Virus genome (UHGV): UHGV-0070450
From: a virus
DNA: 23,277 nucleotides
Strand: one strand, 5' to 3'
The position numbers were made by a program, and so were the translations under genes. The notes under the pieces were generated by a model, which worked only from the letters and a program-made list of their open reading frames with translations, was not told the origin of the DNA and made no database searches. This document shows, in pieces, positions 1 through 18,665 of the stretch. How positions within the stretch are numbered: the stretch's first letter is position 1; every line of letters begins with the position of its first letter.

Positions 1-405
1 ATGGATCAGGTCGTTGTTTTTCAAAAGATGTTTGAGCAAGTGAGAAAAGAGCAAAACTTCTCCTGGTTTTATTCAGAATTAAAACATAACCGTATTGCAC
101 ATTACATTTATTATCTGGCTACGGATAACATCAGAATTATTACTCACGATGACACGGTTTTGTTATTAAGAGGAACCAGGAGCCTGTTAAAAGTTAGTAC
201 GATCAAGAACCCAACTAAAATAAAAGAGGCCGCATTGCTTCATATTCGCGGAAAATCTACATTTCGGGAATACTGTTCAACACTGGCAGGCGCTGGCGTT
301 TTCCGGTGGGTTACTGATGTTAATCATAACAAACGCAGTTACTACGCCATTGATAATACGCTTTTATATATTGAAGATGTAGAAAATAATAAACCATTAA
401 TCTAG
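1..405 (+). CDS. DUF1398-family protein (YcgX/YbcV/YdfO-like); host-side flank outside the prophage junction
   Basis: 134-aa ORF from the track; motif run YIYYLATDNIRIITHDDTVLLLRGTR...NTLLYIEDVENNKP recalled as DUF1398 family. Lies on the far side of the icd-fragment junction. Confidence 0.6.
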   Translation: MDQVVVFQKMFEQVRKEQNFSWFYSELKHNRIAHYIYYLATDNIRIITHDDTVLLLRGTRSLLKVSTIKNPTKIKEAALLHIRGKSTFREYCSTLAGAGVFRWVTDVNHNKRSYYAIDNTLLYIEDVENNKPLI

Positions 406-620
406 CTAAAGTCTGGAGCTTAAGAAATGCTTCATAATTCAGTAAGGCATTAGCATAATGGAAATGAAAGTGCAGAGACTATCCCTATGGATGATTAATA
501 CTGTCTTTTTATTGCCCCCCATAATTAATCACCAGACCAATACGATCAAATTGATATTTGAAATGTGTTCACTTGACTTTTGATACGTTATTTTATAACG
601 GTTAACATATTTATAAAAAC

Positions 621-643
621 AACGGGCGTGTTATACGCCCGTT
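621..643. terminator. Stem-loop, probable intrinsic terminator downstream of the icd 3' fragment (possibly bidirectional)
   Basis: Perfect 9-bp inverted repeat AACGGGCGT / ACGCCCGTT with 5-nt loop; followed on the minus strand by a T-run (GTTTTTAT), 24 nt after the icd-fragment stop. Confidence 0.45.
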
Positions 644-666
644 TCAATATTTAACACATATAGAGA

Positions 667-831
667 TTACATATTCTTGATGATCGCGTCACCAAATTCT
701 GAACATTTCAGCAGTTTAGCGCCCTCCATCAGACGTTCGAAGTCATAGGTTACGGTCTTGGCGTTGATTGCGCCTTCCATACCTTTAACAATCAGGTCAG
801 CCGCTTCAGTCCAGCCCATATGGCGCAGCAT
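667..831 (-). pseudogene. icd: 3'-terminal fragment of isocitrate dehydrogenase gene (icdC-like); prophage attachment-site remnant
   Basis: Minus-strand translation [54 protein letters not shown] matches the C-terminus of Icd. Similarity stops abruptly at about 831, where non-icd AT-rich DNA begins. Confidence 0.8.
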
Positions 832-972
832 TAGATTTAGAAAATTATTATATCCAATTGAATTAAAACAATTTTATACTTAACGAACATCTAAACTTGT
901 TTTTTTACCTTCACCATAACTCGCTGATTTTGTATAGTTTACGTAGCGTTTTGATAACCACTTTATGGCAAA

Positions 973-1302
973 ATGGAGGTTCGCTTGAAAACTTCTGTTC
1001 TTATCCAGAAATTAATGGAAATTGACAAAACTGTACTATTCGATGCGGACGTAGTGACCGGTGAGGAATGGTGGCCAACCCCGATTTCTCGTGTTTATCA
1101 CAATCCGCCACATACTTATGTAGAATTTTAAACAGGTGAACAATCTCAAAATGAATCTGACGAGCTAAGTGTTTATAGCGAATTACAAATTTGTGCACAT
1201 CGAATGATGCAAATTAGAGATTTTGTGCAATCTAACGAGGGACTGAAACCTGAAAAAATTGTTTCGGAAATAAACATTCAAATTGAACGTATTAAAAAGT
1301 GA
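973..1302 (+). pseudogene. Unassigned ORF interrupted by an in-frame TAA (1129-1131); possible decayed cargo gene
   Basis: ATG at 973 gives MEVRLKTSVLIQKLMEIDKTVLFDADVVTGEEWWPTPISRVYHNPPHTYVEF, then TAA, then the same frame continues for 56 more codons (TGEQSQNESDELSVYSELQICAHRMMQIRDFVQSNEGLKPEKIVSEINIQIERIKK*). No obvious Shine-Dalgarno; function unknown. Confidence 0.2.
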
Positions 1303-1367
1303 TGGCTGAAGCAATTCTGAAACACTAATTCATATTCTATGTTATTCATACCAATGTGGATTTAACT

Positions 1368-1401
1368 CCCACCAACCCACCAACCCACCAACCCACCAAC
1401 C
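1368..1401. repeat. Tandem octamer repeat (CCCACCAA) x 4.25
   Basis: Direct read: cccaccaa cccaccaa cccaccaa cccaccaa cc, immediately upstream of the ATG at 1402 and 257 bp upstream of the restriction gene start. Confidence 0.9.
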
Positions 1402-1657
1402 ATGATTGGGCGGCGCAAGAAATTAATATCAATTAAAACAGCAAGTTATCAGTCTAAACAGAACACCAACGGGATGGAGGAGAGACAAAAAATATCCAAT
1501 GAAACCGTAGCGCGTCAGCATTCAAAAGCGGGGTTTCTTATTTTTACTTCACCAGTAACAAATACACTGTATCATAACTACATAAAAATGATTGTTCTGA
1601 CTCAGATGAATTTCTTACTCTTGTGGAATGTCACTTAATGTTATTTATAGGTAAACA

Positions 1658-3547
1658 ATGAAATCCGAAACGCTAACCATCCAGCAAATTTTCCAAAATC
1701 AACGACAATATCGTGTTCCATTCTATCAACGTGCCTACGTATGGACGCAACGAAACCAATGGTCAGCTTTGTTGGAGGATATCTTCGAAAAAGCACAGAG
1801 CCGACTTTCGGGAACAAAACCAACCCCTCATTTCCTCGGCGCGGTGGTGCTGGAACCTCAACTCAAAAACAGCTTGTTAGGTGTAGATACCATACATATT
1901 ATTGACGGCCAGCAACGTTTAACCACTCTTCAATATATTCTGGCATCCATTCGATTATCATTGCGTGCTACAGGCCTTTCTGAACTGGAAGGGTTAGTAT
2001 TGACTTGCTTGAAAAATACAAACGAAGCAACGATGAGAAATAAAAAGGTAGAATGCTTCAAACTGTGGCCAACTTTTCGAGATCAAACTCATTTTATTCA
2101 AAGTCTTAATGTTGATAATATTGACGATCTCCGTAATGTATTTTCTGATAGCTTCACGCAACATGGTACGTTACGTAAACATTTCAACCACCCGCCGTCA
2201 CTAGAGGCATTATGGTTTTTTACTGAAGCCTTTATAAAATGGATTAAAATAGAAAACCACTCACCACAAGAAAATGCTGTAGCACTAATTGAGGCTGTCT
2301 TGACGGATCTGAAACTGGTAAGCATATTTCTCGAAGCTGAAGATGATGCCCAAATAATTTTTGAAACATTAAATGGGCGAGGAGCGGAACTTCATGCAAC
2401 GGATCTTATTCGCAACTATATCTTTATGTGCGCTGAGCATGAAAATATTAATGCTATTGAATTATATGAAAATGAGTGGAAGATCTTTGAAGATAAATAC
2501 TGGTCGGAAAAGCAACGCCGTGGACGTATTAATAAACCACGCATGGAGTGGCTTGTACATGCGACATTGCAATCAGAAAGGCAGCGTGAAATTGATCTGT
2601 CTCGCCTTTACAATGAGTATCGTGATTATGTAAGTAAGGACTTGCCTTCACAACGAGCAGATCTGCAAGTAAAGCGCCTCAAACAATATGCATCACAATA
2701 TAAAGAATTGGTTGGTGGTTTTGGCACAACCCCCATCTCACACTTTGGACATCGCATCGCAGCCTATGATGTGACGACACTCTATCCGCTTGCTTTGTTC
2801 ATTTCGATAGCTAACATCGCCGATGATGAGAAAGCAGCCATGTATAATGATCTTGTCTCCTACGTAGTACGAAGATCCGTATGTGGCCTGACGCCAAAGA
2901 ATTACAACAATGTATTTATGAATGTATTGCGACACTTGTCTAAAACGGAAATTTCCAGTGTTGAGTTACGTAATATCCTCAATAGCTTAAATGGCGAAGC
3001 CTCACGTTGGCCTGGGGACTCAGAATTTCTCAACGCTTGCATCAATGCTCCACTTTATCCTGGCAGGCTCGACGCACCGAAAATGCGCTCAATGTTAACG
3101 GAACTTGAAAGAGAACTTTGTCGCCAAGTGAAGACAGAAAAGCCTGATGTTCCAAATCTTTCTAATCTCGATATCGATCATCTTATGCCTCAAAGTTGGT
3201 ATTCCTGTTGGCCTCTCGAAAATGGTCATATGGTGACAAATTCAGATGCTACGGTAATGAACCAAATTGTTCTGTCTGGAACCGATCTTACCCCTGAACA
3301 GCTACTGGTAAGGAAACGGCAACAAGCGATAGCTACGTTGGGAAATCTAACTTTGCTTAACCTTAGCGTAAACCGTTCCGTTCAGAATGCTGTATTTCTG
3401 AAAAAACGTGATGCTCTCATCGTCCACACCAATCTACGACTGAACATACCACTTATACTTAAGGATAAATGGGATGAGAGTGAAATACAGGAGCGAGGTA
3501 AAAAGTTGGGGGAAATTGCATTGAAAGTATGGCCAAAATACGATTAA
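1658..3547 (+). CDS. GmrSD-like type IV (modification-dependent) restriction endonuclease; DUF262 (ParB-like NTPase) fused to DUF1524 (His-Me finger nuclease)
   Basis: 629-aa ORF. N-terminal part has RVPFYQRAYVW and IIDGQQRLTTL (DGQQR motif typical of DUF262); C-terminal part has DIDHLMPQSW ... NLTLLNLSVNRSVQN ... KKRD (H/N/N pattern typical of DUF1524). Sits where e14 carries mcrA. Confidence 0.75.
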   Translation: MKSETLTIQQIFQNQRQYRVPFYQRAYVWTQRNQWSALLEDIFEKAQSRLSGTKPTPHFLGAVVLEPQLKNSLLGVDTIHIIDGQQRLTTLQYILASIRLSLRATGLSELEGLVLTCLKNTNEATMRNKKVECFKLWPTFRDQTHFIQSLNVDNIDDLRNVFSDSFTQHGTLRKHFNHPPSLEALWFFTEAFIKWIKIENHSPQENAVALIEAVLTDLKLVSIFLEAEDDAQIIFETLNGRGAELHATDLIRNYIFMCAEHENINAIELYENEWKIFEDKYWSEKQRRGRINKPRMEWLVHATLQSERQREIDLSRLYNEYRDYVSKDLPSQRADLQVKRLKQYASQYKELVGGFGTTPISHFGHRIAAYDVTTLYPLALFISIANIADDEKAAMYNDLVSYVVRRSVCGLTPKNYNNVFMNVLRHLSKTEISSVELRNILNSLNGEASRWPGDSEFLNACINAPLYPGRLDAPKMRSMLTELERELCRQVKTEKPDVPNLSNLDIDHLMPQSWYSCWPLENGHMVTNSDATVMNQIVLSGTDLTPEQLLVRKRQQAIATLGNLTLLNLSVNRSVQNAVFLKKRDALIVHTNLRLNIPLILKDKWDESEIQERGKKLGEIALKVWPKYD

Positions 3548-3569
3548 TGCAATTAATAAAATGATTATA

Positions 3570-3593
3570 GCGGCCTTACATTAGTAAGGCCGC
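3570..3593. terminator. Stem-loop between convergent genes (restriction gene and pin remnant)
   Basis: Perfect 10-bp inverted repeat GCGGCCTTAC / GTAAGGCCGC with 4-nt loop; AT-rich flanks; the pin-remnant stop codon lies in the loop. Confidence 0.4.
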
Positions 3594-3772
3594 AACTCAC
3601 TATTAAATCCTTTAATTTGCATCAAGAACAGCACTGTCAGCCCTAGGCTCTCGGACTTTGTACCGCTTATCTTGTCTTCAAAAATCAGCTCGCATCCTGC
3701 ACAGTTCAACGCATTACGTTGTAGATCGATTTTCTGGTCATTTGTTGATACGCAAACATAGCCAATAAGCAT
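3581..3772 (-). pseudogene. pin: Pin/Gin/Hin-family serine DNA invertase, truncated after about 41 conserved residues
   Basis: From the ATG at 3770-3772 (GAGGGAG Shine-Dalgarno upstream): MLIGYVCVSTNDQKIDLQRNALNCAGCELIFEDKISGTKSE matches the invertase N-terminus, then diverges (SLGLTVLFLMQIKGFNSELRPY*). The conserved YVRVS motif reads YVCVS here. Confidence 0.75.
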
Positions 3773-3798
3773 GGTAGCTCCCTCTGACAAAAGCAGGA

Positions 3799-4188
3799 AT
3801 GATGCCATTTTCTCGTTATTTCTGCATTTTCATAAACGTTGGTTTGGGAGAATTATCTCTGGCTGGCACTGCATCGGGTGTCATTGGTCTGAATGGGTAT
3901 GTAACGATTCCGTTAATTATTTCAGGTTCCCGGAGAACACTGATTATTCAGTGGGGGCAGGCGAGATTTGGTGGGTCTGGTGGTGAAGATGCCGGATATC
4001 TTAATGATTTTCCTTTTGCCTTTCCGTCAGCATGTTATGGAATGATAGTTAGTCATGTGGGGCATACACCTTCAGGCGCAGGAATCCTGTCGGCTTCTGC
4101 AATTACATCAAATCAGTTCCGCGGTTTTTCAAGCATAGCGACTGCTGCAAATGCTGTATTAGGTCGTTATATCGCTATAGGGGGTTAA
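3799..4188 (+). CDS. Alternate tail-fibre C-terminal domain (promoterless copy inside the invertible segment)
   Basis: Contains TLIIQWGQARFGG, sharing the LIIQWG motif and a 17-bp identity (CTGATTATTCAGTGGGG) with the minus-strand fibre ORF. The track start at 3799 is probably not a true start because the ORF runs through the crossover site. Confidence 0.5.
   Translation: MMPFSRYFCIFINVGLGELSLAGTASGVIGLNGYVTIPLIISGSRRTLIIQWGQARFGGSGGEDAGYLNDFPFAFPSACYGMIVSHVGHTPSGAGILSASAITSNQFRGFSSIATAANAVLGRYIAIGG
3827..3852. other. Candidate invertase crossover site (hix/gix-like 26-mer), pin-proximal
   Basis: ttttcataaacgttggtttgggagaa; its reverse complement TTCTCCCAAACC... resembles the hix half-site TTCTTGAAAACC, and it pairs as an inverted partial repeat with 5267-5292. 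Confidence 0.4.
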
Positions 4189-4189
4189 T

Positions 4190-4627
4190 ATGTTTTATAG
4201 TCCATCATTAAACATTTTTGTGAATCCTGCGCTTAAGGATGATTACATTAATGCAAATTCATGGCCAGATGATGCTCTGGCTGTCAGTGATGATGTTTAT
4301 AATGAATTTGCAATCAATACGCCCCCATATGACAAAATTCGTGTTGCAGGAAAAAATGGATTACCCACATGGGCACTAATACCTCCACCATCGCATGAAG
4401 AACTTATTCAACAGGCAGAATCAGAAAGGCAATTATTGCTTAATCAGGCCAACGAATACATGAACAGTAAACAATGGCCCGGTAAAGCCGCTATTGGTCG
4501 TCTGAAAGACGAGGAACTGGCACTATATAATTTGTGGCTGGATTACCTGGACGCACTGGAACTGGTGGATACCTCCAGTGCTCCAGATATTGAATGGCCT
4601 ACACCTCCGGTAACTCAGGCCAGCTAA
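4190..4627 (+). CDS. Tail fibre assembly protein (Tfa family)
   Basis: 145-aa ORF immediately after the fibre segment, ending ...TSSAPDIEWPTPP, which parallels the ...TSTAPEISWPELP end of the convergent copy. Confidence 0.7.
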   Translation: MFYSPSLNIFVNPALKDDYINANSWPDDALAVSDDVYNEFAINTPPYDKIRVAGKNGLPTWALIPPPSHEELIQQAESERQLLLNQANEYMNSKQWPGKAAIGRLKDEELALYNLWLDYLDALELVDTSSAPDIEWPTPPVTQAS

Positions 4628-5024
4628 TCTCAGGAGCCGTCGAAGTGTCGACGGCTTTTACTTCTTTTTTGTAGTCCATCCAGGCGGATAGTTTTTCTTT
4701 ATCTGTACTGCTGATATCACCAAGCATTAATTCCACTCGCCAGTCAGCTGTGACATTATCGGCATGAGCAAGTAACTGCATTCGCTGATTTTCAGCACGT
4801 GCGACATAATCAATCGCCGGAGATTTCAGTACCGGTAAACCATTTTCATCTGACGTGATTAATTTACCCCCTTCCTGCTGTCCGGCAATTAATTCATTGT
4901 ATAAGTCTGTACTTATCTCAACAATGTCAGCAGGCATGTCGCTGTTTATACCATCAAAGAAAAAACCATTAGTCGATTTTGAGAAATAAATCATAGATAT
5001 ACCTATACACCGATTGCTACCCAA
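4599..5024 (-). CDS. Tail fibre assembly protein (Tfa family)
   Basis: 141-aa ORF; its 3' end overlaps the convergent tfa by about 29 bp, as in invertible G/P segments. Confidence 0.7.
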   Translation of the reverse strand: MGSNRCIGISMIYFSKSTNGFFFDGINSDMPADIVEISTDLYNELIAGQQEGGKLITSDENGLPVLKSPAIDYVARAENQRMQLLAHADNVTADWRVELMLGDISSTDKEKLSAWMDYKKEVKAVDTSTAPEISWPELPEV

Positions 5025-5524
5025 AAACAGGACCTTTCATATTTGACAATTTCTCCCTGAGATATACCGCCAACAATTATATAGAACTGTGATTTGGTGA
5101 TATCAGAACAGTTCGCAATGCCCATTGCAGATATACCCGCCACCGACGTTGTATGTGGTACAGCCAACAGCGCAAGTGAACGACTTGGGAATGTTACCGG
5201 GTAAGTCACCGTATAGTTTGATGCTCCACTGACTATACCCCACTGAATAATCAGACCTGAAGGGAGTTTTTGAAAACCCGTTGATGAAAGTGAACTGGCA
5301 AACGCCGCCATATCCGGAATTTGGTTTTGCTCGTTACCCACATTTCGTTTTGCCGCTTCTCCCAAACCAAGGTTTTGAAGAGCCGTTTTCACCGTGCCGT
5401 CCGGTTTGTCGCGGTTCGGGTATTCGTGCGTTTCCACACGACGACCGGTTCCCGCACTTTCTTCTTCAACCTTAAACGGCACACCGCGAAATGACGCGTC
5501 CTGAAGTCTGTCTTTCCACGTCAT
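5003..5524 (-). CDS. Chimeric tail protein: Mu gp43/N-like DNA-circulation N-terminus fused to a tail-fibre C-terminal domain
   Basis: Likely start MTWKDRLQDASFRGVPFKVEEESAGTGRRVETHEYPNRD (GGAG Shine-Dalgarno 5 nt upstream) resembles the DNA-circulation N-terminal signature; C-terminal half (GLIIQWGIVSGASNYTVTYPVTF...) is fibre-like. The track ORF extends to 5566. Confidence 0.55.
   Translation of the reverse strand: MTWKDRLQDASFRGVPFKVEEESAGTGRRVETHEYPNRDKPDGTVKTALQNLGLGEAAKRNVGNEQNQIPDMAAFASSLSSTGFQKLPSGLIIQWGIVSGASNYTVTYPVTFPSRSLALLAVPHTTSVAGISAMGIANCSDITKSQFYIIVGGISQGEIVKYERSCFWVAIGV
5267..5292. other. Candidate invertase crossover site (hix/gix-like 26-mer), distal
   Basis: tttttgaaaacccgttgatgaaagtg; left half TTTTTGAAAACC matches the recalled hix half-site TTCTTGAAAACC at 11 of 12 positions; lies inside the tail-fibre coding sequence. 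Confidence 0.4.
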
Positions 5525-5539
5525 ATAAACTCCGTACAT

Positions 5540-5561
5540 AAAAAATCCCACCGGAGTGGGA
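5540..5561 (-). terminator. Stem-loop with T-run just after the tape measure stop (minus strand)
   Basis: Minus strand reads TCCCAC-TCCG-GTGGGA followed by TTTTTT, between the tape measure stop (5585) and the next start (5524). Confidence 0.4.
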
Positions 5562-5584
5562 CTCATTAACAGATTAATTTTTCA

Positions 5585-7420
5585 TTACCTGCCAAAGCGC
5601 GTATAGCCAACATCATGGCTGACATCAAAACCGCTGGATCGCGTTTCCATAACCCGCATACCCGGAGGCGAATTCACAAAAGAGACCTTGATCTCACCAT
5701 CAACTTTTGGCGCAGAAGCTTTGTTAATCATGAAGGGATTCGGGCCTGTGGCACCGGAGGCGTTGTTTGACTGAGCCGGATCTACCGCCTGATAAGGCGT
5801 GTATCCCCGTGCCGGTATTCCCGTCCCATAAGCATCATAAGCACCCGCGCCCCACTGCGCAGAGTTAATGGCATCGACCGTGTCACCGGAACTGTCGGTA
5901 AACCACTCAATAATTGGCTTCAGTTTGTCCCACATATCCTGAAACCACTTAACAACCGGTCCCCAGTTATTGATTACCATCCCCAGCGGCGACCAGGCAA
6001 AAACCTTCTTCAGAAGTTCCCAGCCAGCCTCAAAATAAGGACCAATGGTTTCCCAGAGCTTCTTGAAATAAGGTCCGACAACATCCCAGTTAGTGATAAT
6101 TAATCCCGCAGCCAGGGCTATCGCCGTCGCAATCATGCCAATCGGCGTCATCGACATGATCCTGCTGACAATACTGATGGCACCGCCAACGCCCATCAAT
6201 CCCAGTTTCAGAATCGCAAGACCGGCAGCAAGCCCGACGACGCCGCGAATAACCCGGGGATTTTCATCCGCAAACTTCGTGAATTTTTCCCCTAACTCCC
6301 CCAGCCATTGCGTGATATTTTTGGCGTCACCAGAAAATGCGCCGCCAATAGCCGCAAGGCCGTTAGTTGCGGTCCCCGTCATTGCCTCCCACAGGTTGGA
6401 CAGCGTACCAAGCTGGGCCTGAACACGTTTATTCAGGCTGGCCTGTTTATTCATCTTCTGCTGGATCTGATCGTAGCCATCCTTTCCTTTATCGATTAGT
6501 GCATTGACCACCTGAAGGGTTTCGGCATCATCACCAAATATTGCCTTAAGTACACCTGTTCGCTTAACGTCGGTCAGTTTTCGCAGCTTTGCCAGTTGCC
6601 TGAACATGTTATCAAGACCGCCAAAACTTCCTTTGCCGTCAGTAAAATCGAGCTGTACCCCGAGTTTCTGGCGGGCCATGATTTTATTGACGTCCCTGAT
6701 TTTCTTAACGCTTAATCCGGACTGGATAACTTTTCGCAGGGCGTTACCTGCCGACTCCCCGTTCATCCCCATCTGATCCATCATGACGCTGATGGGGGCA
6801 AGGCTCTGTGCAGCCTGAAGACCGTCCTTGTTCACCATCTTCAGAACAGAGCTGGTTTTAGTGAAGAAGGACAACATGTTGGTATCGTCAACACCCAGAT
6901 AAAACGCCTTCTGGATAGTGTCGAACAGCCCCATCATGTCTTCTGACGCCGTTCCGGTAGCATCCTGCATCTTTGCAGCAAACTCAGCAGCCGCTTCCGG
7001 TGTTTTTTTCAGTTGTACCGCAAGATAAGCTGTCGCTTTACCCACACCGCCAAGAATGTTTTCTGCCGGGATCCCCTGACGCACCAGCATCTGCATCATG
7101 TTCTGGAAATCAGCCGTTGTACCGGGTAGCTGGTTACCCAGGCCAATAGCCAGTTTATTGATGTCCTGAAAGCTCTTTCCGACCTCGCCGTTCGCATCCA
7201 TCATGGCGACTTTCAGCCCGGTGGCGGCGTTTTCCTGATCGGCATAAGATTTCAGGGAAAGCGTCAGACCCGCTGCCAGTCCGCCACCAAGCGCCAGCCC
7301 ACCCTGTGACGCTTCTTCCGCCTGGCGTTTAAATCCCCGGATTTTCTTTTGCATTTTCGACAGCGCCGGAGAAAGCCTGTCGACACCGGTGATCAACGCC
7401 TTAAGCTCAAATTCAGCCAT
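5585..7420 (-). CDS. Tail tape measure protein
   Basis: 611-aa ORF with Ala/Gly-rich, helix-prone N-terminal two thirds, a hydrophobic segment (AAGLAILKLGLMGVGGAISIV...) and Trp-rich repeats. Follows the chaperone frameshift pair. Confidence 0.85.
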   Translation of the reverse strand: MAEFELKALITGVDRLSPALSKMQKKIRGFKRQAEEASQGGLALGGGLAAGLTLSLKSYADQENAATGLKVAMMDANGEVGKSFQDINKLAIGLGNQLPGTTADFQNMMQMLVRQGIPAENILGGVGKATAYLAVQLKKTPEAAAEFAAKMQDATGTASEDMMGLFDTIQKAFYLGVDDTNMLSFFTKTSSVLKMVNKDGLQAAQSLAPISVMMDQMGMNGESAGNALRKVIQSGLSVKKIRDVNKIMARQKLGVQLDFTDGKGSFGGLDNMFRQLAKLRKLTDVKRTGVLKAIFGDDAETLQVVNALIDKGKDGYDQIQQKMNKQASLNKRVQAQLGTLSNLWEAMTGTATNGLAAIGGAFSGDAKNITQWLGELGEKFTKFADENPRVIRGVVGLAAGLAILKLGLMGVGGAISIVSRIMSMTPIGMIATAIALAAGLIITNWDVVGPYFKKLWETIGPYFEAGWELLKKVFAWSPLGMVINNWGPVVKWFQDMWDKLKPIIEWFTDSSGDTVDAINSAQWGAGAYDAYGTGIPARGYTPYQAVDPAQSNNASGATGPNPFMINKASAPKVDGEIKVSFVNSPPGMRVMETRSSGFDVSHDVGYTRFGR

Positions 7421-7831
7421 GTGTGCGTTTCTCCTGCTCTATCCTGTTTGCCTGACTGACCAGCAAGGGAATTTCACTGATCGGCATATTCAGCAATTCG
7501 AAGGGATTAATGCGCCAGTAACTGGCGCAGTCAAAGAAGCGATCAGTGAGGTATTCAGCCGTCAGGCCTGGAGGAAAAAACCGGCCACAAGCCACGCCGC
7601 TGCATTCAGGTCTGCCGGAGACATCTGGTCGACAGAGCTTTGCGGCACTTTCGCCAGCCGCACGATGTATTTCGATACCACATGCGCCAGAAGTCTGACG
7701 GACTCATCCTGATTCATCTGGTAGGGATATCCCAGCTCGCGGACATCTTTCCCGGTGGGCTCATCAAACTCCAGTACGGAGAGTGTCTCGCCATGAGCGG
7801 TAATCGGTTTCTTTAACTCAAGCTCTTTCAT
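7413..7831 (-). CDS. Frameshift-extended tail assembly chaperone (P2 E+E' / lambda GT analogue) produced by a -1 slip
   Basis: A -1 shift at GGT TTT TTC gives the reading ...FFPPGLTAEYLTDRFFDCASYWRINPF..., which is the 60-aa overlapping ORF 7413-7595; it ends 8 nt inside the tape measure start. Confidence 0.5.
7562..7831 (-). CDS. Tail assembly chaperone (P2 gpE / lambda G analogue)
   Basis: 89-aa ORF between tube and tape measure genes, ending at a slippery heptamer. Confidence 0.6.
   Translation of the reverse strand: MKELELKKPITAHGETLSVLEFDEPTGKDVRELGYPYQMNQDESVRLLAHVVSKYIVRLAKVPQSSVDQMSPADLNAAAWLVAGFFLQA
7574..7580 (-). promoter_or_regulatory. Slippery heptamer T TTT TTC (programmed -1 ribosomal frameshift site)
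   Basis: Minus strand reads GCC GGT TTT TTC CTC CAG GCC TGA; X XXY YYZ pattern in the zero frame, 4 codons before the chaperone stop. Confidence 0.5.
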
Positions 7832-8187
7832 TACTGGTAATCCCCTTCTTCACCGTGGAACTCAAGATCAACCGTGCCTTCTTCGGCATTATGGTTCGCT
7901 TCGCCGTGCAGCCAGGCAGACGACAGTACATAGACCTGACCGTTCGCCAGCTCGGCAGTGATTGTCATCTCATCAGACGAGGTGATTTTGTTCACCGGAA
8001 AATTCTTCGGCACCTTGAAGGTCCCTTTGACATAAGGCGCACGGTGAGTTTCCTTGCGGTCCACTGAGCCGTCCAGGCCGATGATGTCATCATTGACCGT
8101 CCTGTTCATGGGCACCTCAATGCCGCCGGTCAGCGATAGCTGCTGACCGTCAATTTTGAAATAACAGGTTCCCCCGATACGGGCCAT
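7831..8187 (-). CDS. Tail tube protein (Mu M / P2 FII-like)
   Basis: 118-aa ORF directly after the sheath gene (ATGA-type overlap at 8187), the conserved sheath-tube-chaperone-tape measure order. Confidence 0.7.
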   Translation of the reverse strand: MARIGGTCYFKIDGQQLSLTGGIEVPMNRTVNDDIIGLDGSVDRKETHRAPYVKGTFKVPKNFPVNKITSSDEMTITAELANGQVYVLSSAWLHGEANHNAEEGTVDLEFHGEEGDYQ

Positions 8188-9683
8188 TATGCAGACTCCT
8201 CTGAATACTGAAGACGGAACTGGTTAACCACGGCAAAGACACGCAACTGGTTAACATAGTCAGGCGGGAACAGCGTGTTCAGGCGGTTCGGATCGCTGGC
8301 ATCACGCTCCACAACCAGGTACTGCTTGAACAGTTCGTAGTTTTCCACGATCCCCGCACGCTCGAGCTGACGGTAGGTTGCCAGCAGTTCCCCTTTGATC
8401 ACCGCCGGGGTGACAATCGCCTGACCGGGACCAAAGCGGGTACCGTCACTGGCAAGCTTGTGACGCCCGTACTTACTGGTAATGACGGATTTCAGTTTGC
8501 GCAGTACATACGCGCTGGTATGCAGCGTCTCGCTGTCGAGGTAGCTGTTATCCGCAACCCCGTAAGCGTTTTTCCTGTACGTGGTGACATCACGCTGAAT
8601 GCGCAGTACCCCGCTTTCGACATACGCCGTTGCCACGCCATGAGACAGCAGGGTCTGTTGTTCGGTCATCGTGAACCGTTTCCCCTTCGGCGCAGGCTGC
8701 ATACCCACCAGCTCACCGGTCTGCGTGGGACGTGCCGGATCGTTGCGGATAAACACCGCTGCGCGGGCGGTACGGCTTGCCGCCAGCTCGTCGGCAGGTG
8801 TCTGGGTTTCTTTTTCGTACCCCGCCAGGGTAATGTGCTGCTGGTTAAACTGGTCACCTGCGGTCACCAGTTCTGACAGCGTACCGGTCTTTGCCGTATA
8901 CACATGACCATACAGCTGACGAGCATAGCTCCAGCGACCGCTGGTATCGTTCATCTCGGTCACCAGCGTGTTAACGGAGGCCGTGTCGTTGAACGGCAGA
9001 CCGATATAATCAAACGGCTCATCCGCCATTGCAGCCACCGCACCGGTGAGAACAGGAGCGCCCGTTCCGGCGGTACCCGTCGCCACAGCAATCTGTACAC
9101 CCGCTGGCAGCACTTCGCCCCCACCAAAGCCGTAGTAATTGAGGCTGACAGGAATTTCATTCCCGCAAAGCCCCTTATGACGCGCGGTCAGTGTGACCAC
9201 GCCTGCCGAAGATGAAGCCGTAAACGGCAGGGCCGGAACGGCATTGATGGCATCTTTGATACTGCTGGCAATCGTCGCGACGTTATCGCCGTTGGTCACC
9301 GGTGCCTGCACGCGGGTACGTCCCACATAAACATTCACCGTGCCGGTTTCGGTTGCTGCCCCGGTCACCGTCAGCGTAACCGTTGCCGCCGCGCCTGTGG
9401 CTTCCGGAACGGCAATCACATACAGCTCGCCAAACGGGTCAGTCTGGCGATAAGCCTCGACCATACGCGCCAGCTGACTTCCCGCACCACAAATCTGGCG
9501 TGCATAGTCTGCCGACGGCATCAGTACCAGACTGTTGGTAACAATCTCTGCACCGTTATTGGCATGACCAATCAGCAACGATGCCCCGCTGTCCTGTGCA
9601 GTATTCGCCGCCTGGTTATCCATTTCCGCATAAAACAACGGAACCAGCGTATTCGACGGAATGGTGTTAAAGCTTATCGTCAT
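8187..9683 (-). CDS. Contractile tail sheath protein (Mu L / P2 FI-like)
   Basis: 498-aa ORF; N-terminus MTISFNTIPSNTLVPLFYAE is typical of myovirus sheath proteins; position before tube gene. Confidence 0.8.
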   Translation of the reverse strand: MTISFNTIPSNTLVPLFYAEMDNQAANTAQDSGASLLIGHANNGAEIVTNSLVLMPSADYARQICGAGSQLARMVEAYRQTDPFGELYVIAVPEATGAAATVTLTVTGAATETGTVNVYVGRTRVQAPVTNGDNVATIASSIKDAINAVPALPFTASSSAGVVTLTARHKGLCGNEIPVSLNYYGFGGGEVLPAGVQIAVATGTAGTGAPVLTGAVAAMADEPFDYIGLPFNDTASVNTLVTEMNDTSGRWSYARQLYGHVYTAKTGTLSELVTAGDQFNQQHITLAGYEKETQTPADELAASRTARAAVFIRNDPARPTQTGELVGMQPAPKGKRFTMTEQQTLLSHGVATAYVESGVLRIQRDVTTYRKNAYGVADNSYLDSETLHTSAYVLRKLKSVITSKYGRHKLASDGTRFGPGQAIVTPAVIKGELLATYRQLERAGIVENYELFKQYLVVERDASDPNRLNTLFPPDYVNQLRVFAVVNQFRLQYSEESA

Positions 9684-9702
9684 CGGTATTCACCTTTTTA
9701 TT

Positions 9703-9837
9703 CACGCGCCGGATATCACCCGCTGCTTCACGGCGCAGCCAGTAGTTGTTCTCGTCAACATTTCGCCCTTCGGCGGGCAAAAGGTCGCCGCGGGCAGGAT
9801 CAGGAACTGACCGCCCTTTAACAGGTTTGACAAACAT
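9703..9837 (-). CDS. Small ORF between the gp37-like gene and the sheath gene (about 44 aa)
   Basis: ATG at 9835-9837: MFVKPVKGRSVPDPARGDLLPAEGRNVDENNYWLRREAAGDIRA*. Below the ORF-track size cutoff; coordinates approximate. Confidence 0.3.
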
Positions 9838-9845
9838 GAGGATCC

Positions 9846-10406
9846 TCAGGAAGGAAGGGTTATTTCGGTGTGATGTTCGATATCGCCGTCAGGCCCGTTA
9901 CCGGGCTCGAGATAATCAACATCAATCGCCAGCGTTTGCAGTTCATCCAGACTGTTCAGATCATCCTGCTGGCGGGTATCGTCTTCGGTCAGCTCGCTGA
10001 TGACCGAAAAATCGAACTGATAAATCAGCTCATGACGATTCAGATCCAGCAGCGTGCCGCCGTCATAGGTAATCGGGTTACCGCACGCCTCCGGGTTCCA
10101 GCCCAGCAGGGCCTTAAAGAGCATCTGCCGGACATCGTCCACCACATCATACGAGGCAAACTGACCGCGCTCATCACGCCCGTTACTCAGTATGACAACC
10201 ACGGAGAAACCCTCTTTCAGCTCCTGCCAGTAGTCGGTCTGGCTTTTGTTTTCTCCCGGAGAATCATCACCCGGTACAACATATGCCGCCGGGAGTTTCA
10301 GCTTTCCGACCTCCGGCAGATTTTTGAACTGGGCCGCGCCTGCAACCCGGTTTTCAAAATACGGACAGCGGGCACGCAGTGCAGCAATAACAGGCGTCAG
10401 TTTCAT
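9846..10406 (-). CDS. Phage virion protein (Mu gp37-like; tail completion/terminator candidate)
   Basis: 186-aa acidic ORF between head-completion genes and sheath; family assignment by position and composition only. Confidence 0.45.
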   Translation of the reverse strand: MKLTPVIAALRARCPYFENRVAGAAQFKNLPEVGKLKLPAAYVVPGDDSPGENKSQTDYWQELKEGFSVVVILSNGRDERGQFASYDVVDDVRQMLFKALLGWNPEACGNPITYDGGTLLDLNRHELIYQFDFSVISELTEDDTRQQDDLNSLDELQTLAIDVDYLEPGNGPDGDIEHHTEITLPS

Positions 10407-10909
10407 CTGTGTCGTCGCTCCGGCTTCAGTGATTTACGCAATTCCCGCGCCAGAAAATAGCGTGTCCAGCTGCGGTTCTTTTCAAGCGTTTCCACCATGA
10501 AGTTATTACGTGGAGCCAGTCGCCAGCCGCTGCCACCGGATGCACCACGATGATGGCTGCGACGACGCTTTGCCCCTCGCCTCACACCATAGAACAAAAA
10601 AGCCGGATAAAAATCACCGCTGATACGGCGGTTTCCCTCTCCATTACGCTGGTTAGGGGCTATACGTGCCATAAAACCAGGGCGATGTTTACTGGCTCTG
10701 GGTACCATGTAACCAATCGAACGAGCCAGGCGTCCGGTCTGATAACCGGGGTTTTCACCCGGTGCCGACCGCGCACGGCGCATCACCAGCCGACGGGCAT
10801 CACGCATATGACGCTGACCAATCGTGACAAACGCCCGCCGGACACGGGCGCGGTTAAAGCGCATCTCCGCGGGCTGCTGAAAATCAACGTGCAAAAAGGA
10901 AGTCGTCAT
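10403..10909 (-). CDS. Basic phage virion morphogenesis / head-tail completion protein
   Basis: 168-aa, Arg-rich ORF overlapping neighbours by 4 and 26 nt; position between head closure and tail genes. Confidence 0.45.
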   Translation of the reverse strand: MTTSFLHVDFQQPAEMRFNRARVRRAFVTIGQRHMRDARRLVMRRARSAPGENPGYQTGRLARSIGYMVPRASKHRPGFMARIAPNQRNGEGNRRISGDFYPAFLFYGVRRGAKRRRSHHRGASGGSGWRLAPRNNFMVETLEKNRSWTRYFLARELRKSLKPERRHR

Positions 10910-11294
10910 TGTTGCCTCCGTGACTCTGCCTACATTCGCCCAGCTCCGTACACTCCAGCAGCAGAAAGCGCCGCGCCCCGTTCAGATCGCGCTGACGTTT
11001 CACCCGGTACACACTGTCACCGCAGACCACCTCATAATCAGCGGTGATCCCCCGGCGATAACGAATGGTGATGTAATGGGTGATGGCGTCCCCTGTCTGC
11101 GCGGTTTCCTGCCAGGTGGTGGCACTGGTCTGGATAACCTTCGCCCATGTCCGGAACGTAACCGGGTATTGAGGCTCCACGCCAAAGTTATCCGCGGGCA
11201 TATCCACCCGCAGGCGGATCAGGACGCGTTTATTCAGTTCACCGGGGTCCGGCAGAATGTAGGTTGCGCTGGTCTGCGCCTGACGAATTTTCAT
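10884..11294 (-). CDS. Head closure / head-tail adaptor protein
   Basis: 136-aa ORF immediately after the gp6-like connector gene (ATGA overlap at 11291-11294). Confidence 0.5.
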   Translation of the reverse strand: MKIRQAQTSATYILPDPGELNKRVLIRLRVDMPADNFGVEPQYPVTFRTWAKVIQTSATTWQETAQTGDAITHYITIRYRRGITADYEVVCGDSVYRVKRQRDLNGARRFLLLECTELGECRQSHGGNNDDFLFAR

Positions 11295-11614
11295 TGCGGA
11301 AAGTACCTGTACGGGCCGACAAGCCAGCCAAAACTCTGCGGCATGTCGAGTTTCTCCACTTCCGTAACCGACGAGCGGTTTTCGTAAAAATGGCTGATAA
11401 GCATCAGCATCCCCAGACGAATATCATCCGGCAGGTGCAGCCCGTCCGGATCGCTGTCCGGAATGGTTTCATCCGGTGCATAGAGCTTCCGGTTCAGATA
11501 CGTTTCCGTCCGCTTTTGTGCCGCACAGGCCAGCAGTTGCAGATGGCGGTCATCAGCATCGAAATCCTCATCCAGCCGGAGTTGGGCTTTAATCTCTTCC
11601 ATTGTCAGAAGCAT
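11291..11614 (-). CDS. gp6-like head-tail connector protein
   Basis: 107-aa ORF; N-terminus MLLTMEEIKAQLRLDEDFDADDRHLQLL resembles the recalled gp6-like family start. Confidence 0.6.
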   Translation of the reverse strand: MLLTMEEIKAQLRLDEDFDADDRHLQLLACAAQKRTETYLNRKLYAPDETIPDSDPDGLHLPDDIRLGMLMLISHFYENRSSVTEVEKLDMPQSFGWLVGPYRYFPQ

Positions 11615-11616
11615 AC

Positions 11617-11817
11617 TCAGCCCTCTTTACTGGTCGTGGCTTTTTTCTCTTTTGCCGCTTTACTGCTTTTTGCACTGGTTCCGCGCTCTGCTAACCCGGC
11701 CTGAAGTGCAATCTCCTGCACCCGGGCAGGAAGCGCCCCGTCGTCATACTCACCGGCCCGAATGACCTCAACACGCATACCGTCCGGTGACCATTTCAGA
11801 TCTTGTTTCAGGATCAT
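11617..11817 (-). CDS. Small head-module protein, unknown function
   Basis: 66-aa ORF between capsid and connector genes; Lys/Ala/Ser-rich C-terminal tail. Confidence 0.4.
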   Translation of the reverse strand: MILKQDLKWSPDGMRVEVIRAGEYDDGALPARVQEIALQAGLAERGTSAKSSKAAKEKKATTSKEG

Positions 11818-11839
11818 GATTCTTCACCCGCCAGAACAG

Positions 11840-11859
11840 GGGGCGCGGTTCCGCGCCCC
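11840..11859 (-). promoter_or_regulatory. GC-rich stem-loop 7 nt after the major capsid stop
   Basis: GGGGCGCGG tt CCGCGCCCC, 9-bp perfect stem; no T-run after it on the minus strand, so more likely an RNA stability or attenuator element than a full terminator. Confidence 0.4.
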
Positions 11860-11866
11860 TGAGTGA

Positions 11867-13072
11867 TTACGCCGCTGCAATCTTCAGCAGTTTGATGGCC
11901 TGCGAATCGACCAGCATCCCGCCGGTGCGCTTGGTGGTATAAAAACCGACAAACGGTTTATTGGTGTACGGGTCACGCAGAATGCGGGTGCCGATACGGT
12001 CAACGATGGTGTAACCCCGTTTGAAGTTACCAAATGCAATGGCTTTCGCATCAGCGGCGATATCCGGCATCTGTTCGTTTTCAGCGATACCGTAACCCGC
12101 CAGAGAGGACGGCTGCCCCAGTTCCAGCCCCGGACGCCACAGATAGTTACCCTCGGTGTCTTTCAGCAGACGGATGGCAAACAGGCTGTTGTTGTTCATC
12201 ATGAACTTCGCGCCGGTGCGGTGTGCCTTACGCAGCGTGTAAATCAGTTTGATAATGGCGTCTGCGGTCACCGCAGTCGCGTCGCCGGATACAATATGCT
12301 GAAGTTTGCCGAACGCCCGGACCTTATCGGTTTCATCCGTGGATTCATACGCCAGGAACCCTTTCGGCTTCTTGGTACCATCGCCGGTGGTAAAGGCAAT
12401 TTCTTCCTGTTCGGCAAATTCGGTTGCCAGCTCGCTGTTGATCCATGCTTCCACGTTGAAAAAGGCATCATCCAGCATTTTCTGGGTGGCCTGCGGGTTA
12501 CCGTAGATTTCCCCCATGAAAGGTTCAATCAGGCCCAGTTTTGAGGTGGCAGTCTGGGAGCGCGCGTCAGTCTCGCCAACCCATCCGGAAGCCGTGCCGC
12601 CCAGATTCACCAGTTTTTTGTAGTCGGAACCACCAACGGTGATCACCGTGGCTTCCTGGCGCATCACCACTTCATCTTTCAGCAGGGTCAGAATGTTGCG
12701 ATCCAGCGCTTCCGGCACGGCATAGCCGCCGTCTTCATCGGTGCCCACCTGTAATGCCTTGCGCTCCAGATCGCGCAGACCATCTTCACGGCCTTTACGC
12801 AGGAAGCCCACAAACGCTTCTTTATGCTCGGTGGTCAGTTTATTTTGCGCACCACCTGCCGGACGTTTCAGCTCAAGCAGCTCTTTTTCAAGATCGCTTT
12901 TGAGGTTTTCCAGCTCGCTGAGTTTTCCGTTCAGGGTTTCCACCTGCCCGGCAAGCTTGCCTTTTTCCTGCTCAATCGCATCCACGCGCTTGTCGTTCTT
13001 TGCTTTGAAGTCGTCAAACTTCTGCTGCAGCTCCTGCGCGACCTGTTCGACATCTTTAATATCAACCGCCAT
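11867..13072 (-). CDS. Major capsid protein, HK97 fold, with N-terminal coiled-coil (scaffold/delta-like) region
   Basis: 401-aa ORF; first ~70 residues heptad-like (KLAGQVETLNGKLSELENLKSDLEKELLELK), remainder typical of HK97-type capsid proteins; follows the protease gene. Confidence 0.9.
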   Translation of the reverse strand: MAVDIKDVEQVAQELQQKFDDFKAKNDKRVDAIEQEKGKLAGQVETLNGKLSELENLKSDLEKELLELKRPAGGAQNKLTTEHKEAFVGFLRKGREDGLRDLERKALQVGTDEDGGYAVPEALDRNILTLLKDEVVMRQEATVITVGGSDYKKLVNLGGTASGWVGETDARSQTATSKLGLIEPFMGEIYGNPQATQKMLDDAFFNVEAWINSELATEFAEQEEIAFTTGDGTKKPKGFLAYESTDETDKVRAFGKLQHIVSGDATAVTADAIIKLIYTLRKAHRTGAKFMMNNNSLFAIRLLKDTEGNYLWRPGLELGQPSSLAGYGIAENEQMPDIAADAKAIAFGNFKRGYTIVDRIGTRILRDPYTNKPFVGFYTTKRTGGMLVDSQAIKLLKIAAA

Positions 13073-13086
13073 CGTATTTCTCCTGA

Positions 13087-13773
13087 TTAGAAGTTCAGAT
13101 TTTTCAGTGCATTCAGTGCAGAGCCCACATCCTCAGCGTCGCGCAGGGACAGTGCGCCATAGCCCCCGGCCATGAATGCTTTGGCCTGGGTACGGGAGAG
13201 TCCGACATCACGCAGGACTCTTTCGATTTTTTTCTGTTCGGGGATTTCCCCGCGGGCCAGTGCGTTCTTGACGTCGCTGATCCGCGCCTCGTCGTTAGAC
13301 GGGAACGTCACCAGGCTGACTTCCCAGAGGTCGATTTCTTTCAGCAGAAAGGCTTCTTTGCTCCGGTCGTATTCCCAGTCTTTCAGGACGTACCCAATAG
13401 AAAGGCCGGTTAACGAACCGGCCTTCATGTGTGCATGTGCGCGTTTTGCGAGGGGATCATCATCAATAAGCAACCGTCCCCTGACGTAAAGCCCGACATC
13501 GTCTTCCTTCATTTCGGTGTAAACACCGATGGGTTCATCCATGCGGTGCTGCCAGAGCAGCGCAGGTAACGCTTTTCTGTCACTCCACGCCCGCAGGGAA
13601 GCAGCAAATGCCCCGGACATCACCACATCATCGTGGCTGTCCTTTACACCAAAGACGGAGCCATACCCTTCAAACTCACCGGAGTCACTGACAGATTTCA
13701 GACTCAGCGGTACATCAAGACGTTGTTTCGTCTGCATTGGCGTTATCCTTCTGCTTACCGGCTTTACTGCCAT
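13087..13773 (-). CDS. Prohead protease (HK97 family)
   Basis: 228-aa ORF with EGYGSVFGVKDSHDDVVMSGAF motif region, between portal and capsid genes. True start may be an internal Met because the track start overlaps the portal 3' end. Confidence 0.85.
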   Translation of the reverse strand: MAVKPVSRRITPMQTKQRLDVPLSLKSVSDSGEFEGYGSVFGVKDSHDDVVMSGAFAASLRAWSDRKALPALLWQHRMDEPIGVYTEMKEDDVGLYVRGRLLIDDDPLAKRAHAHMKAGSLTGLSIGYVLKDWEYDRSKEAFLLKEIDLWEVSLVTFPSNDEARISDVKNALARGEIPEQKKIERVLRDVGLSRTQAKAFMAGGYGALSLRDAEDVGSALNALKNLNF

Positions 13774-14956
13774 CGGAGGGTTTCGTGGTCATGTTCATCG
13801 GTGTGAGATAGACATCCCCACCGGGACGCGGATTCATATCTTCCAGGTCGCGGCAGTCATTGGGAGAGTAAATTCCCCAGTTAATCCCGGTGGCGTAGGC
13901 TTCAAAACGGGACTTCATATCCCCGCGCAGTAACGCCCCGGCGTTAAATTTGGCGTAATAAACGCCCTGCTTACTTTTTCGTACCAGTCCGGTGTTGATC
14001 CGCTGTTCGATGCGGGTCAGATACGGCACCAGTGAATAGTTGATAAATCCCAGCCCCAGCTCTTCGATATTGTTGAAGGTGGCGCGATCGGTGTTCTGCA
14101 CCATGTGCAACGGCACCCGGAACAGACGACAGATTTCTTCAAGCTGAAACTTGCGGGTTTCCAGGAACTGGCTGTCCTCGGCGTTCAGCGCCATCGACTT
14201 CCAGTCCAGCCCCATCTCAAGGATCATCGGGCGGTGAGCATTGCCAAGCCCGGTGTGACGCTCCTCAAAATCTTTCTTCAGGCGCTCATAAGCCTGATCT
14301 GACAGCGTCTGCTCTGTACGCAACACACCCGACGTCACCGCGCCATTGCTGAACAGTCTGGCCCCGTGCTCTTCGGTCGCTGCCGCCAGCGATATTGCCT
14401 CGCGGGCATAGGCGATGGGATTCAGCCCCACCAGTCCGTCCAGCGTCAGCGTGCGCACATGCCAGATATCCTCCTGGCTCAGTACATCCGTGGAGCCATC
14501 CGGGAATGTGACCTGATAGACCGGCTCCCAGCTACTGTTAAGCTTCGGTACCACACAGCCGGGATCGACGGGCAGCAGTTCAGCCACTTCGCCAAATGCT
14601 TTCACTTTGTAGGCGTAAAAGTTTCCCCGCAGGCACAGACAGGTGACCACCAGCTCCCAGAACTCCTGCGGCGTCATATAGCCATTGGGATGCGTGGAGA
14701 TCAGCTTATGCAGACGTTCGCCAGTGGCTCTCTGCTTCAGGCTGCCGTTCAGGTGATACAGGTTGCAGGGCAACATCCCGACCGACTCCGCCAGCACCCT
14801 GACACAGGAAAAAACCGCCGTCAGTCGCATGGCCCGCTGGCTGCTGATCTGCTTTCCGGTATAGGTGTCGTAGGACAACCCGATAGCATCCGCCAGCTCT
14901 GCTGGCGTGGTCACCGGTGCGTCACTTTTTTGTTGAAATAATCCCGAAAAGAACAC
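13715..14956 (-). CDS. Portal protein (HK97 family)
   Basis: 413-aa ORF downstream of the terminase large subunit; size and order typical. Confidence 0.85.
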   Translation of the reverse strand: MFFSGLFQQKSDAPVTTPAELADAIGLSYDTYTGKQISSQRAMRLTAVFSCVRVLAESVGMLPCNLYHLNGSLKQRATGERLHKLISTHPNGYMTPQEFWELVVTCLCLRGNFYAYKVKAFGEVAELLPVDPGCVVPKLNSSWEPVYQVTFPDGSTDVLSQEDIWHVRTLTLDGLVGLNPIAYAREAISLAAATEEHGARLFSNGAVTSGVLRTEQTLSDQAYERLKKDFEERHTGLGNAHRPMILEMGLDWKSMALNAEDSQFLETRKFQLEEICRLFRVPLHMVQNTDRATFNNIEELGLGFINYSLVPYLTRIEQRINTGLVRKSKQGVYYAKFNAGALLRGDMKSRFEAYATGINWGIYSPNDCRDLEDMNPRPGGDVYLTPMNMTTKPSDGSKAGKQKDNANADETTS

Positions 14957-15138
14957 TATTTACCTCCGCCGACAGACGACTGTGTACGGTCGAGATATCG
15001 CGCCACCAGCCACGACCAGAACAGGCACAACGCCCCGGCAACAACAAACCCCGCCGGGGGATAAATCAGCCAGGCACCATACGCCAGCAAAAGCGCCCCC
15101 AGCACGCCCACCAGAGGCGCGAGAATCAGCATGATCAT
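14956..15138 (-). CDS. Small predicted membrane protein (two hydrophobic helices) between the terminase and portal genes
   Basis: 60-aa [52 protein letters not shown]...; GAGGT Shine-Dalgarno about 5 nt upstream; fills the gap exactly (12 nt after the terminase stop, 1 nt overlap with the portal start). Confidence 0.4.
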
Positions 15139-15149
15139 AATTACCTCAG

Positions 15150-17850: not shown

Positions 17851-18374
17851 ATGTACTCCAATGAAGAAACCAGCGAAATAGCTGCCTTCATTCGTAGTAA
17901 ACCTTTTTCATCAACGCAGTAATGGATTCTTTGAAGAGTCGCAATCAATACAACTCACTAATGGAGAGACTTGTCTCACGCATGAGACAAATTTCCCGTT
18001 TGAATTAATGGACACTATAGAGGGACAGAATGCCTTCCTCACTCGAATCACATCAATTAAGGAAGTTCAACATGTTTCATTCCACAAGTCATCAGGCTGT
18101 AATTATGGCAGCATCAGTTTGTGCCACAGACCTTTTCCGCTTCACTTTGAGCCTGATTCATTTCTACCTGACCGGCTCGCTTCTATCTTTTTAATCCCCG
18201 CTTTATCCAAATTGCATTGCCAGAATGCCGACAACAGACTGACATTCAAATCCTGACTACCTCCAATAGTCTGACCGTACACCTATATAGTTTTAATTTT
18301 CATCAATCCATTTAACTATCGTTTAATTGTTGTCACATAGGATTCTGCCGTTTTTAACAATGCAGGATAATAAG

Positions 18375-18665
18375 ATGAAAAAAATGTTGTTTTCTGCCGC
18401 TCTGGCAATGCTTATTACAGGATGTGCTCAACAGACGTTTACTGTTGGAAACAAACCGACAGCAGTAACACCAAAGGAAACCATCACCCATCATTTCTTC
18501 GTTTCGGGAATTGGACAGCAGAAAACTGTTGATGCAGCCAAAATTTGTGGCGGCGCAGAAAATGTTGTTAAAACAGAAACCCAGCAAACATTCGTAAATG
18601 GATTGCTCGGTTTTATTACTTTAGGCATTTATACTCCGCTGGAAGCGCGGGTGTATTGCTCATAA
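18375..18665 (+). CDS. bor: Bor lipoprotein (lambda bor-like serum-resistance outer-membrane lipoprotein)
   Basis: MKKMLFSAALAMLITGCAQQTFTV... with lipobox LITGC; strongly matches recalled lambda Bor. The track ORF starts further upstream at 18327; 18375 has the AGGA Shine-Dalgarno. Confidence 0.85.
   Translation: MKKMLFSAALAMLITGCAQQTFTVGNKPTAVTPKETITHHFFVSGIGQQKTVDAAKICGGAENVVKTETQQTFVNGLLGFITLGIYTPLEARVYCS

Follow-up and report, generated by a model that had tools for sequence, protein, structure and literature searches.

A DNA-circularization/tail-fibre fusion ORF and the loss of the baseplate genes in a probably defective e14/SfV-like prophage

Introduction

Next to the tail tape-measure gene of a prophage contained in a 23,277-nucleotide stretch of viral DNA (UHGV-0070450, here called the window), a short ORF is found which appears to begin as one tail gene and to end as another. 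This raises the question of whether the ORF is a gene kept for some function, an artefact of assembly or the scar of a deletion, and of what the loss of the intervening genes would mean for the prophage. The original prediction, made from the sequence alone, regarded the ORF as a chimera of a DNA-circulation protein and a tail fibre, which a single deletion of the baseplate genes would explain, and suspected the prophage to be defective. The features discussed below are listed in Table 1.

Table 1. Features of the fused ORF, its neighbours and the invertible fibre segment, with positions given in the window
Feature	Position	Strand	Remarks
Pin invertase stub (resolvase family)	3626..3772	minus	49 of 184 codons, R7C; same truncation in undeleted EC28
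Alternate, unexpressed fibre C-terminal cassette	3802..4188	plus	Promoterless, gp53-like; inside the invertible segment
Left pix repeat	3834..3852		Inverted partner of 5357-5375; 18/19 complementary
Chaperone of alternate fibre cassette	4190..4627	plus	Inside the invertible segment; convergent with the first chaperone
Tail-fibre assembly chaperone, expressed orientation	4599..4994	minus	Intact, 131 aa, 100% identical to EC28
Fused ORF	5003..5524	minus	173 aa + stop; start MTWKD; ATG at 5524
Short gp53-like tail-fibre 3′ part	5003..5402	minus	Residues 86-218 + stop; full Gp53-like_C
Right pix repeat	5357..5375		In the fibre reading frame; 28 nt downstream of the junction on the coding strand
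Deletion junction	5403..5408	minus	Imperfect 5/6 microhomology, CAAACC versus CAAATC
DNA-circularization/tube-initiator remnant (Mu gp43/N homologue)	5404..5524	minus	Codons 1-41
Terminator-like hairpin	5543..5564	minus	9 pairs, then a T run; in the spacer from the tape-measure gene to the fused ORF
Tail tape-measure gene	5585..7420	minus	Intact, 611 aa, 98.5% identical to EC28

Results and discussion

The prophage and its relatives

The minus strand of the window contains a phage late operon with genes for the large terminase, portal, HK97-type protease and capsid, connectors, sheath (498 aa), tube, tail chaperone and tape measure. At the beginning of the window lie ycgX (1-405) and a C-terminal fragment of icd (667-831), in the same layout as in strains EC28 and K-12, the element being located next to the duplicated icd 3′ fragment, between icd and ycgX. 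The HK97-type head genes and the Mu-like contractile tail genes are highly similar to those of phages SfV and SfI. The window ends at the Q gene, with the early region of this strain lying outside it.

The best intact relatives are the prophages found at icd in EC28 (NZ_CP049101.1) and A42 (NZ_CP028734.1), which are 98.8-98.9% identical over window positions 1-12000. The annotation was read for EC28, and contains the same flanking genes, GmrSD gene, pin stub and fibre cassettes. Both prophages differ from the window in the presence of a 5136-bp block, with which they have a full DNA-circularization gene, five baseplate genes and the 5′ end of the fibre gene. In the window, every protein from the tape measure to the HNH endonuclease (sheath, connectors, capsid, protease, portal and terminase subunits among them) is full length, with 98-100% identity to EC28, and the Rz protein is also full length and 95% identical. 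The picture that these comparisons suggest is of a recent single lesion in an otherwise intact element.

It should also be noted that identity to EC28 is unevenly distributed. The segment from the tape measure to the tail terminator (window 5403 to about 10400) is about 98% identical, except for a 56-aa ORF at 100%, whereas at the fibre/GmrSD end and throughout the head genes the protein identity is 100%. Such a patch of about 98% in the tail genes between flanks at 100% is a mosaic, indicating past homologous exchange among related prophages.

The Shigella flexneri phages SfV, SfI, SfII and SfIV share with the window the sheath, tube, chaperone, tape measure and start of the gp43 homologue at 97-98% identity (DNA), in the same gene order and with the same hairpin after the tape-measure gene. 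They differ in having a complete baseplate module, a non-invertible fibre, integration at tRNA-thrW and gtr O-antigen genes. SfI is a viable contractile-tailed phage, and the morphogenesis genes of the Shigella Sf-phages are shared with e14-type prophages (PMC3636060).

The cryptic prophage e14 of K-12 shares the attachment site of the element here, icd with its duplicated 3′ fragment, and also the structure of the end, an invertible fibre segment with stf/tfa cassettes being followed by pin and then by a type IV restriction gene, which is mcrA in e14 and GmrSD here. Its internal deletions have also left fusion scars, namely YmfN ('chimeric replication protein/phage terminase') and the adjacent beeE/jayE remnants. 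However, e14 has lost nearly all of its head and tail genes while keeping ymfQ, a full stfP fibre and an intact pinE, whereas the element here has kept every head, sheath, tube and tape-measure gene, has lost the baseplate block alone and has only a stub of pin. K-12 e14 represents a member of the same family further along the same decay path.

Composition and start of the fused ORF

In its maximal form the ORF runs from 5566 to 5003 and would encode 187 aa. The profile search that had been proposed for the DNA-circulation N-terminal domain gave a match to DNA_circ_N (PF07157) at residues 21-56 of this form, covering profile positions 2-37 of 88 (E = 2e-10), while Gp53-like_C (PF21882) was found to be complete at residues 100-186 (profile positions 1-83 of 84, E = 2e-14). 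The chimera as such was therefore correctly recognised in the original prediction, but the start that it had been given at 5566 is not the real one. The hairpin contains that ATG, the public protein collection has the 173-aa form alone and no 187-aa form, and intact homologues begin at the ATG of MTWKD. This ATG, at 5524, has a GGAG 5 nt upstream and is the annotated start of the intact homologues, which leaves a protein of 173 aa.

The fused ORF is composed of gp43-like residues 1-41 followed in frame by fibre residues 86-218. Residues 1-41 are 100% identical to the gp43 homologue of EC28 (442 aa), which together with the truncated DNA_circ_N match upholds the assignment of the beginning of the ORF to the Mu gp43/N-type DNA-circulation proteins. 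Residues 42-173 correspond to EC28 fibre residues 87-218 with one substitution, and over EC28 fibre residues 86-218 the identity is 132/133. With 173 aa, the fused ORF falls far short of the approximately 440 aa of intact gp43 homologues (442 aa in EC28 and 447 aa in SfV). The DNA_circ_N domain, at 88 profile positions, is incomplete, less than half of the tube-like domain is kept, and in intact gp43 a C-terminal helix-rich domain touches the wedges (PMC11915804). On the fibre side, the C-terminal gp53-like domain is present and residues 1-85 are missing, which from the docking role known in Mu (PMC11915804) would be the N-terminal anchoring part.

The C-terminus had been described as a fibre variable domain. 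The variable domain is indeed kept, but the ORF has also retained the pix crossover site and some 30 nt of constant sequence. The LIIQWG motif said to be common to this ORF and the alternate fibre copy was traced to a perfect 17-nt inverted repeat (3940-3956 and 5238-5254).

A terminator-like hairpin had also been reported between the tape-measure gene and the ORF, at 5540-5561, where it was simply listed. The hairpin is present, slightly displaced from that position (Table 1), with a folding energy of -18.7 kcal/mol for the 60-nt intergenic region (z = -3.5). However, it gives no support for a defect, as the spacer containing it is identical at 76/76 positions in the viable phage SfII and in intact prophages, and at 72/76 in SfV; the SfII record labels it a putative rho-independent terminator. 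Because of this conservation in SfII, SfV and intact prophages, the hairpin is regarded as a normal feature of this operon, inherited from intact phages. In lambdoid late operons, Q-modified RNA polymerase is expected to read through such terminators.

The missing block and its content

In alignment with the EC28 locus (L002), positions 7410-12809 correspond to window 1-5408 (99.6%) and positions 17940-24809 to window 5403-12272 (98.3%). A single block of 5136 bp between the circularization and fibre genes is thus absent from the window when compared with intact relatives, this figure being corrected for an 8-bp difference in repeat number upstream between the window and EC28. In A42, 17136 bp are spanned by the 12000-bp query, giving the same excess of 5136 bp. 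The extra block was present in 18/18 complete genomes covering at least 80% of window 1-12000, and all 12 of the 12 phage records among the matches listed for the tail genes break at window 5403, SfI, SfII, SfV and SfIV among them.

Lost with the block are 91% of the DNA-circularization gene at its 3′ end, all five baseplate genes and 39% of the fibre gene at its 5′ end. In EC28 the block is annotated as encoding the remainder of a DNA circularization protein, a baseplate assembly (hub) protein, baseplate protein V, GP46, J/gp47, YmfQ and a gp53-like fibre, and it ends within the latter, taking in the first 85 codons of this 218-aa protein. The annotation of SfV equates the genes of the block with N/gp43, P/gp44 and gp45-gp48 of Mu, and the gene order agrees. 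The gp43 protein of Mu forms the hexameric tube initiator, with gp44 as hub, gp45 as spike and gp46-48 as wedges, and the N-terminus of the fibre docks on a loop of gp48 (PMC11915804). The Mu tail module (gp42-gp52 and the G segment) is comparable in its succession of tape measure, gp43/N, gp44-48 baseplate and fibre with constant and variable parts, and in having chaperones in an invertible segment with short flanking inverted repeats (PMC11915804). The kinship with Mu is at the level of protein families only, and the element here differs in that gp43 is cut to 41 residues and the equivalents of gp44-48 are absent.

The absence of the baseplate genes, a further claim made from the sequence, was confirmed by tblastn with the five baseplate proteins of EC28, which gave no match anywhere in the 23-kb window; the complete baseplate module (gp44-gp48 equivalents) of an e14/SfV-like phage is therefore lacking within the window. 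Relocation of these genes within the element was also considered and was rejected from the evidence of the window, in which none lie, and of six related prophages which share the late region, in which none were found in the early regions, these being ordinary e14-type early regions without tail genes.

The deletion junction

Alignment to intact tail modules, which had been suggested as a check, allowed the junction to be placed at a hexamer with imperfect microhomology (Table 1). Within it, base 5403 is common to both parents, 5404 agrees with the circularization side only and 5402 with the fibre side only. On the coding strand the window reads GAC AAA CCG GAC GGC, the gp43-like gene GAC AAA CCC TAT and the fibre gene ATC AAA TCG GAC GGC. 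CAAATC was found at this site in all four of the intact fibre genes examined (EC28, 7784, SfV and K-12 stfP), and for this reason the parent fibre gene very probably read CAAATC too. A longer perfect microhomology in the parent was rejected on the same ground, leaving a 5/6 match with one unambiguous shared base. In all of the intact relatives and phages compared, the two flanks continue without a break to one and the same base, and there is no filler DNA.

The single deletion that had been predicted to join the two genes agrees well with these results, with flanks collinear with those of intact relatives, one 5136-bp block missing and the fusion in frame. It is considered very likely that the ORF is the scar of one illegitimate-recombination deletion of 5136 bp, which took place within the late genes of a temperate e14/SfV-like myovirus prophage at icd. 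Codon 41 of the gp43/N-type gene was joined in frame to codon 86 of the gp53-like fibre gene, with loss of the remaining part of the tube initiator, of the genes for hub (gp44-like), spike (gp45-like) and wedges (gp46-, gp47- and gp48/YmfQ-like), and of the docking N-terminus of the fibre. The minimal microhomology points to a route such as replication slippage or end joining. Since EC28, though closely related, is not the parent itself (its tail genes being about 98% identical), the exact parental junction sequence and the occurrence of one event as opposed to several are proposed on grounds of parsimony.

Fibre cassettes, pix sites and pin

A 19-nt inverted repeat brackets both fibre C-terminal cassettes and their chaperones, as in an invertible segment. 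The pix core AAACCTTGGTTT (5375 to 5364) is intact, starts 28 nt downstream of the junction and is the same as at the fibre cassettes of K-12 e14 and 7784. The adjacent serine invertase gene is not functional, with 49/184 codons left. The fibre segment is frozen unless another Gin/Pin/Hin-type invertase acts in trans, since pin is a stub, though both pix repeats are intact. Additionally, one base differs from EC28 at window 5362 in the right pix half-site, giving Gly instead of Arg in the fibre, and with this difference the pix repeats of the window resemble each other more closely than those of EC28 do.

Frequency and origin of the deletion allele

Window 4600-6000 was used as query against 5426 complete RefSeq E. 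coli genomes. Matches were obtained in 1488 of these, ending or beginning at query positions 804-809 (window 5403-5408), and a match spanning the junction was found in 0/5426. A protein identical to the 173-aa product is nonetheless available as HAJ5472221.1, under the name 'phage tail protein', with sources in NCBI, JGI/IMG, ENA, Logan and GEM. It is encoded on 7 contigs of a public assembly collection, five of them of 0.2-1 Mb, and window 1-15524 recurs at 100% identity on one of these, a metagenome contig of 221 kb. As identical protein and DNA are found on other public contigs, the deletion allele is real and not an artefact. It is also rare, as seen from its presence on 7 contigs and in none of the complete genomes.

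The lack of the junction among complete genomes is what could be said for an assembly artefact, in which two regions were collapsed or misjoined, yet such an origin has practically nothing to recommend it when the exact 173-aa product comes from several public sources and from long contigs, one of them identical to the window over 15.5 kb, and when the two sides share just 1-6 nt, too little for collapse by an assembler. A second thought is that a Pin-family invertase made the deletion, acting on pix and a pseudo-site in the gp43-like gene, as the right pix repeat lies near the junction, whose hexamer CAAACC occurs also in the pix core. With serine invertases, strand exchange takes place in the middle of the crossover site. 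The junction, however, is 28 nt outside the pix core, with pix and about 30 nt of the upstream fibre constant region kept intact, the circularization-side sequence bears no other resemblance to pix, and pin is a 49-codon stub both here and in undeleted EC28. An invertase is thus a highly improbable agent, and the distance to pix, the minimal microhomology and the pin stub together argue for illegitimate recombination. The arrangement may also have come about in several steps, by two successive deletions or by recombination between two prophages. The tail block (about 5403-10400), at about 98% against 100% protein identity at the fibre/GmrSD end and in the head genes, does speak of past recombination, but both flanks reach the same base in every intact relative and phage without filler DNA, and one event is the most economical account; a multi-step history is accordingly regarded as improbable, if less so than the two preceding explanations. 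The baseplate would be lost all the same, whether the origin was in a single step or in several.

Consequences for the prophage

With the native ribosome-binding site and late-operon context kept, the fused ORF would probably still be translated on induction. In its 173-aa product, an intact receptor-binding domain would follow a 41-residue stub without function, and the protein would have no baseplate to attach to. Because the tube initiator, hub and wedges have been lost, it is expected that the prophage cannot nucleate tails. Induction would then result in lysis and at most tail-less, DNA-filled heads, unless a co-resident related prophage supplies baseplates; a second SfV-like tail module elsewhere in the host genome could complement the defect in this way. 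An essential set of virion-assembly genes, for the tube initiator, hub, spike and wedges, has been deleted, and the prophage is probably defective, as was originally suspected.

It may be asked whether the in-frame fusion was kept for a function. Its product might block superinfection by acting as a soluble receptor-binding protein, or the element might live as a helper-dependent parasite that borrows the baseplates of a co-resident SfV-like prophage. The reading frame, the native ribosome-binding site, the intact receptor-binding domain and the intact chaperone gene downstream are all in keeping with this, as are the undamaged state of the other morphogenetic genes and the presence in many E. 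coli genomes of several related tail modules, in up to 6 places per genome. However, an in-frame outcome is a one-in-three event by chance, intact flanking genes are what a recent deletion predicts, the allele is rare (0/5426 complete genomes, 7 contigs), and the 100% identity of a sampled carrier with the window across 15.5 kb is in keeping with a neutral event that took place recently in a single clone. Retention for function is therefore held to be very unlikely. The same slight chance is given to the element being mobilised with the baseplates of a co-resident SfV-like prophage, which is conceivable because all genes compared for head, sheath, tube, tape measure, fibre tip and lysis are still intact, or to the fusion being kept to interfere with the adsorption of related phages.

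The locus is thus a case of ordinary prophage decay and not a new kind of gene, and the element adds a new deletion derivative to a well-known prophage family. For annotation, the public 'phage tail protein' is a fusion pseudogene, and a prophage that is near-complete by gene count should here be scored as defective. The locus provides a base-resolved case of early decay in the e14/SfV family, in which one microhomology-associated deletion would disable the tail while the cargo genes (GmrSD restriction enzyme and Bor/Iss) and all else compared are intact, and it complements the more eroded e14 of K-12. This is useful for annotation; it will not surprise a specialist and raises no new biological question.

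Cargo and insert genes

At the attR end, a full-length gene for a GmrSD-type type IV restriction enzyme is located on the plus strand (1658-3547). It was identified by PADLOC as mREase_IV (1524 bits, 629/629 positions) and contains the Pfam domains GmrSD_N and GmrSD_C. The same slot holds mcrA in K-12 e14 and a LEM-3-like GIY-YIG gene in strain 7784, and looks like a swap site for defence genes.

A two-gene insert is found on the plus strand (20256-22648) between the holin gene and the Q antiterminator gene, which are on the opposite strand; EC28 has ompC at this location. One of its genes encodes a 391-aa NA37/YejK-like protein of the nucleoid-associated family with an N-terminal CxxC...CxxC motif. 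The other encodes a 404-aa protein which is very widespread (2540 index blocks) and lies beside the NA37-like gene in 6/6 relatives examined. No Pfam match was obtained for the 404-aa protein, and PADLOC gave no match for either of the two ORFs. The insert may represent an uncharacterised lysogenic-conversion or defence pair.

Adjoining the lysis cassette, a gene for a Bor/Iss-family lipoprotein, a homologue of serum-survival proteins, is present on the plus strand (18327-18665) and is 99% identical to iss of EC28. Finally, an octamer tandem repeat, (CCCACCAA)n, lies at about 1366-1400 in the DNA that separates the icd fragment from the GmrSD gene, with one unit more than in EC28.
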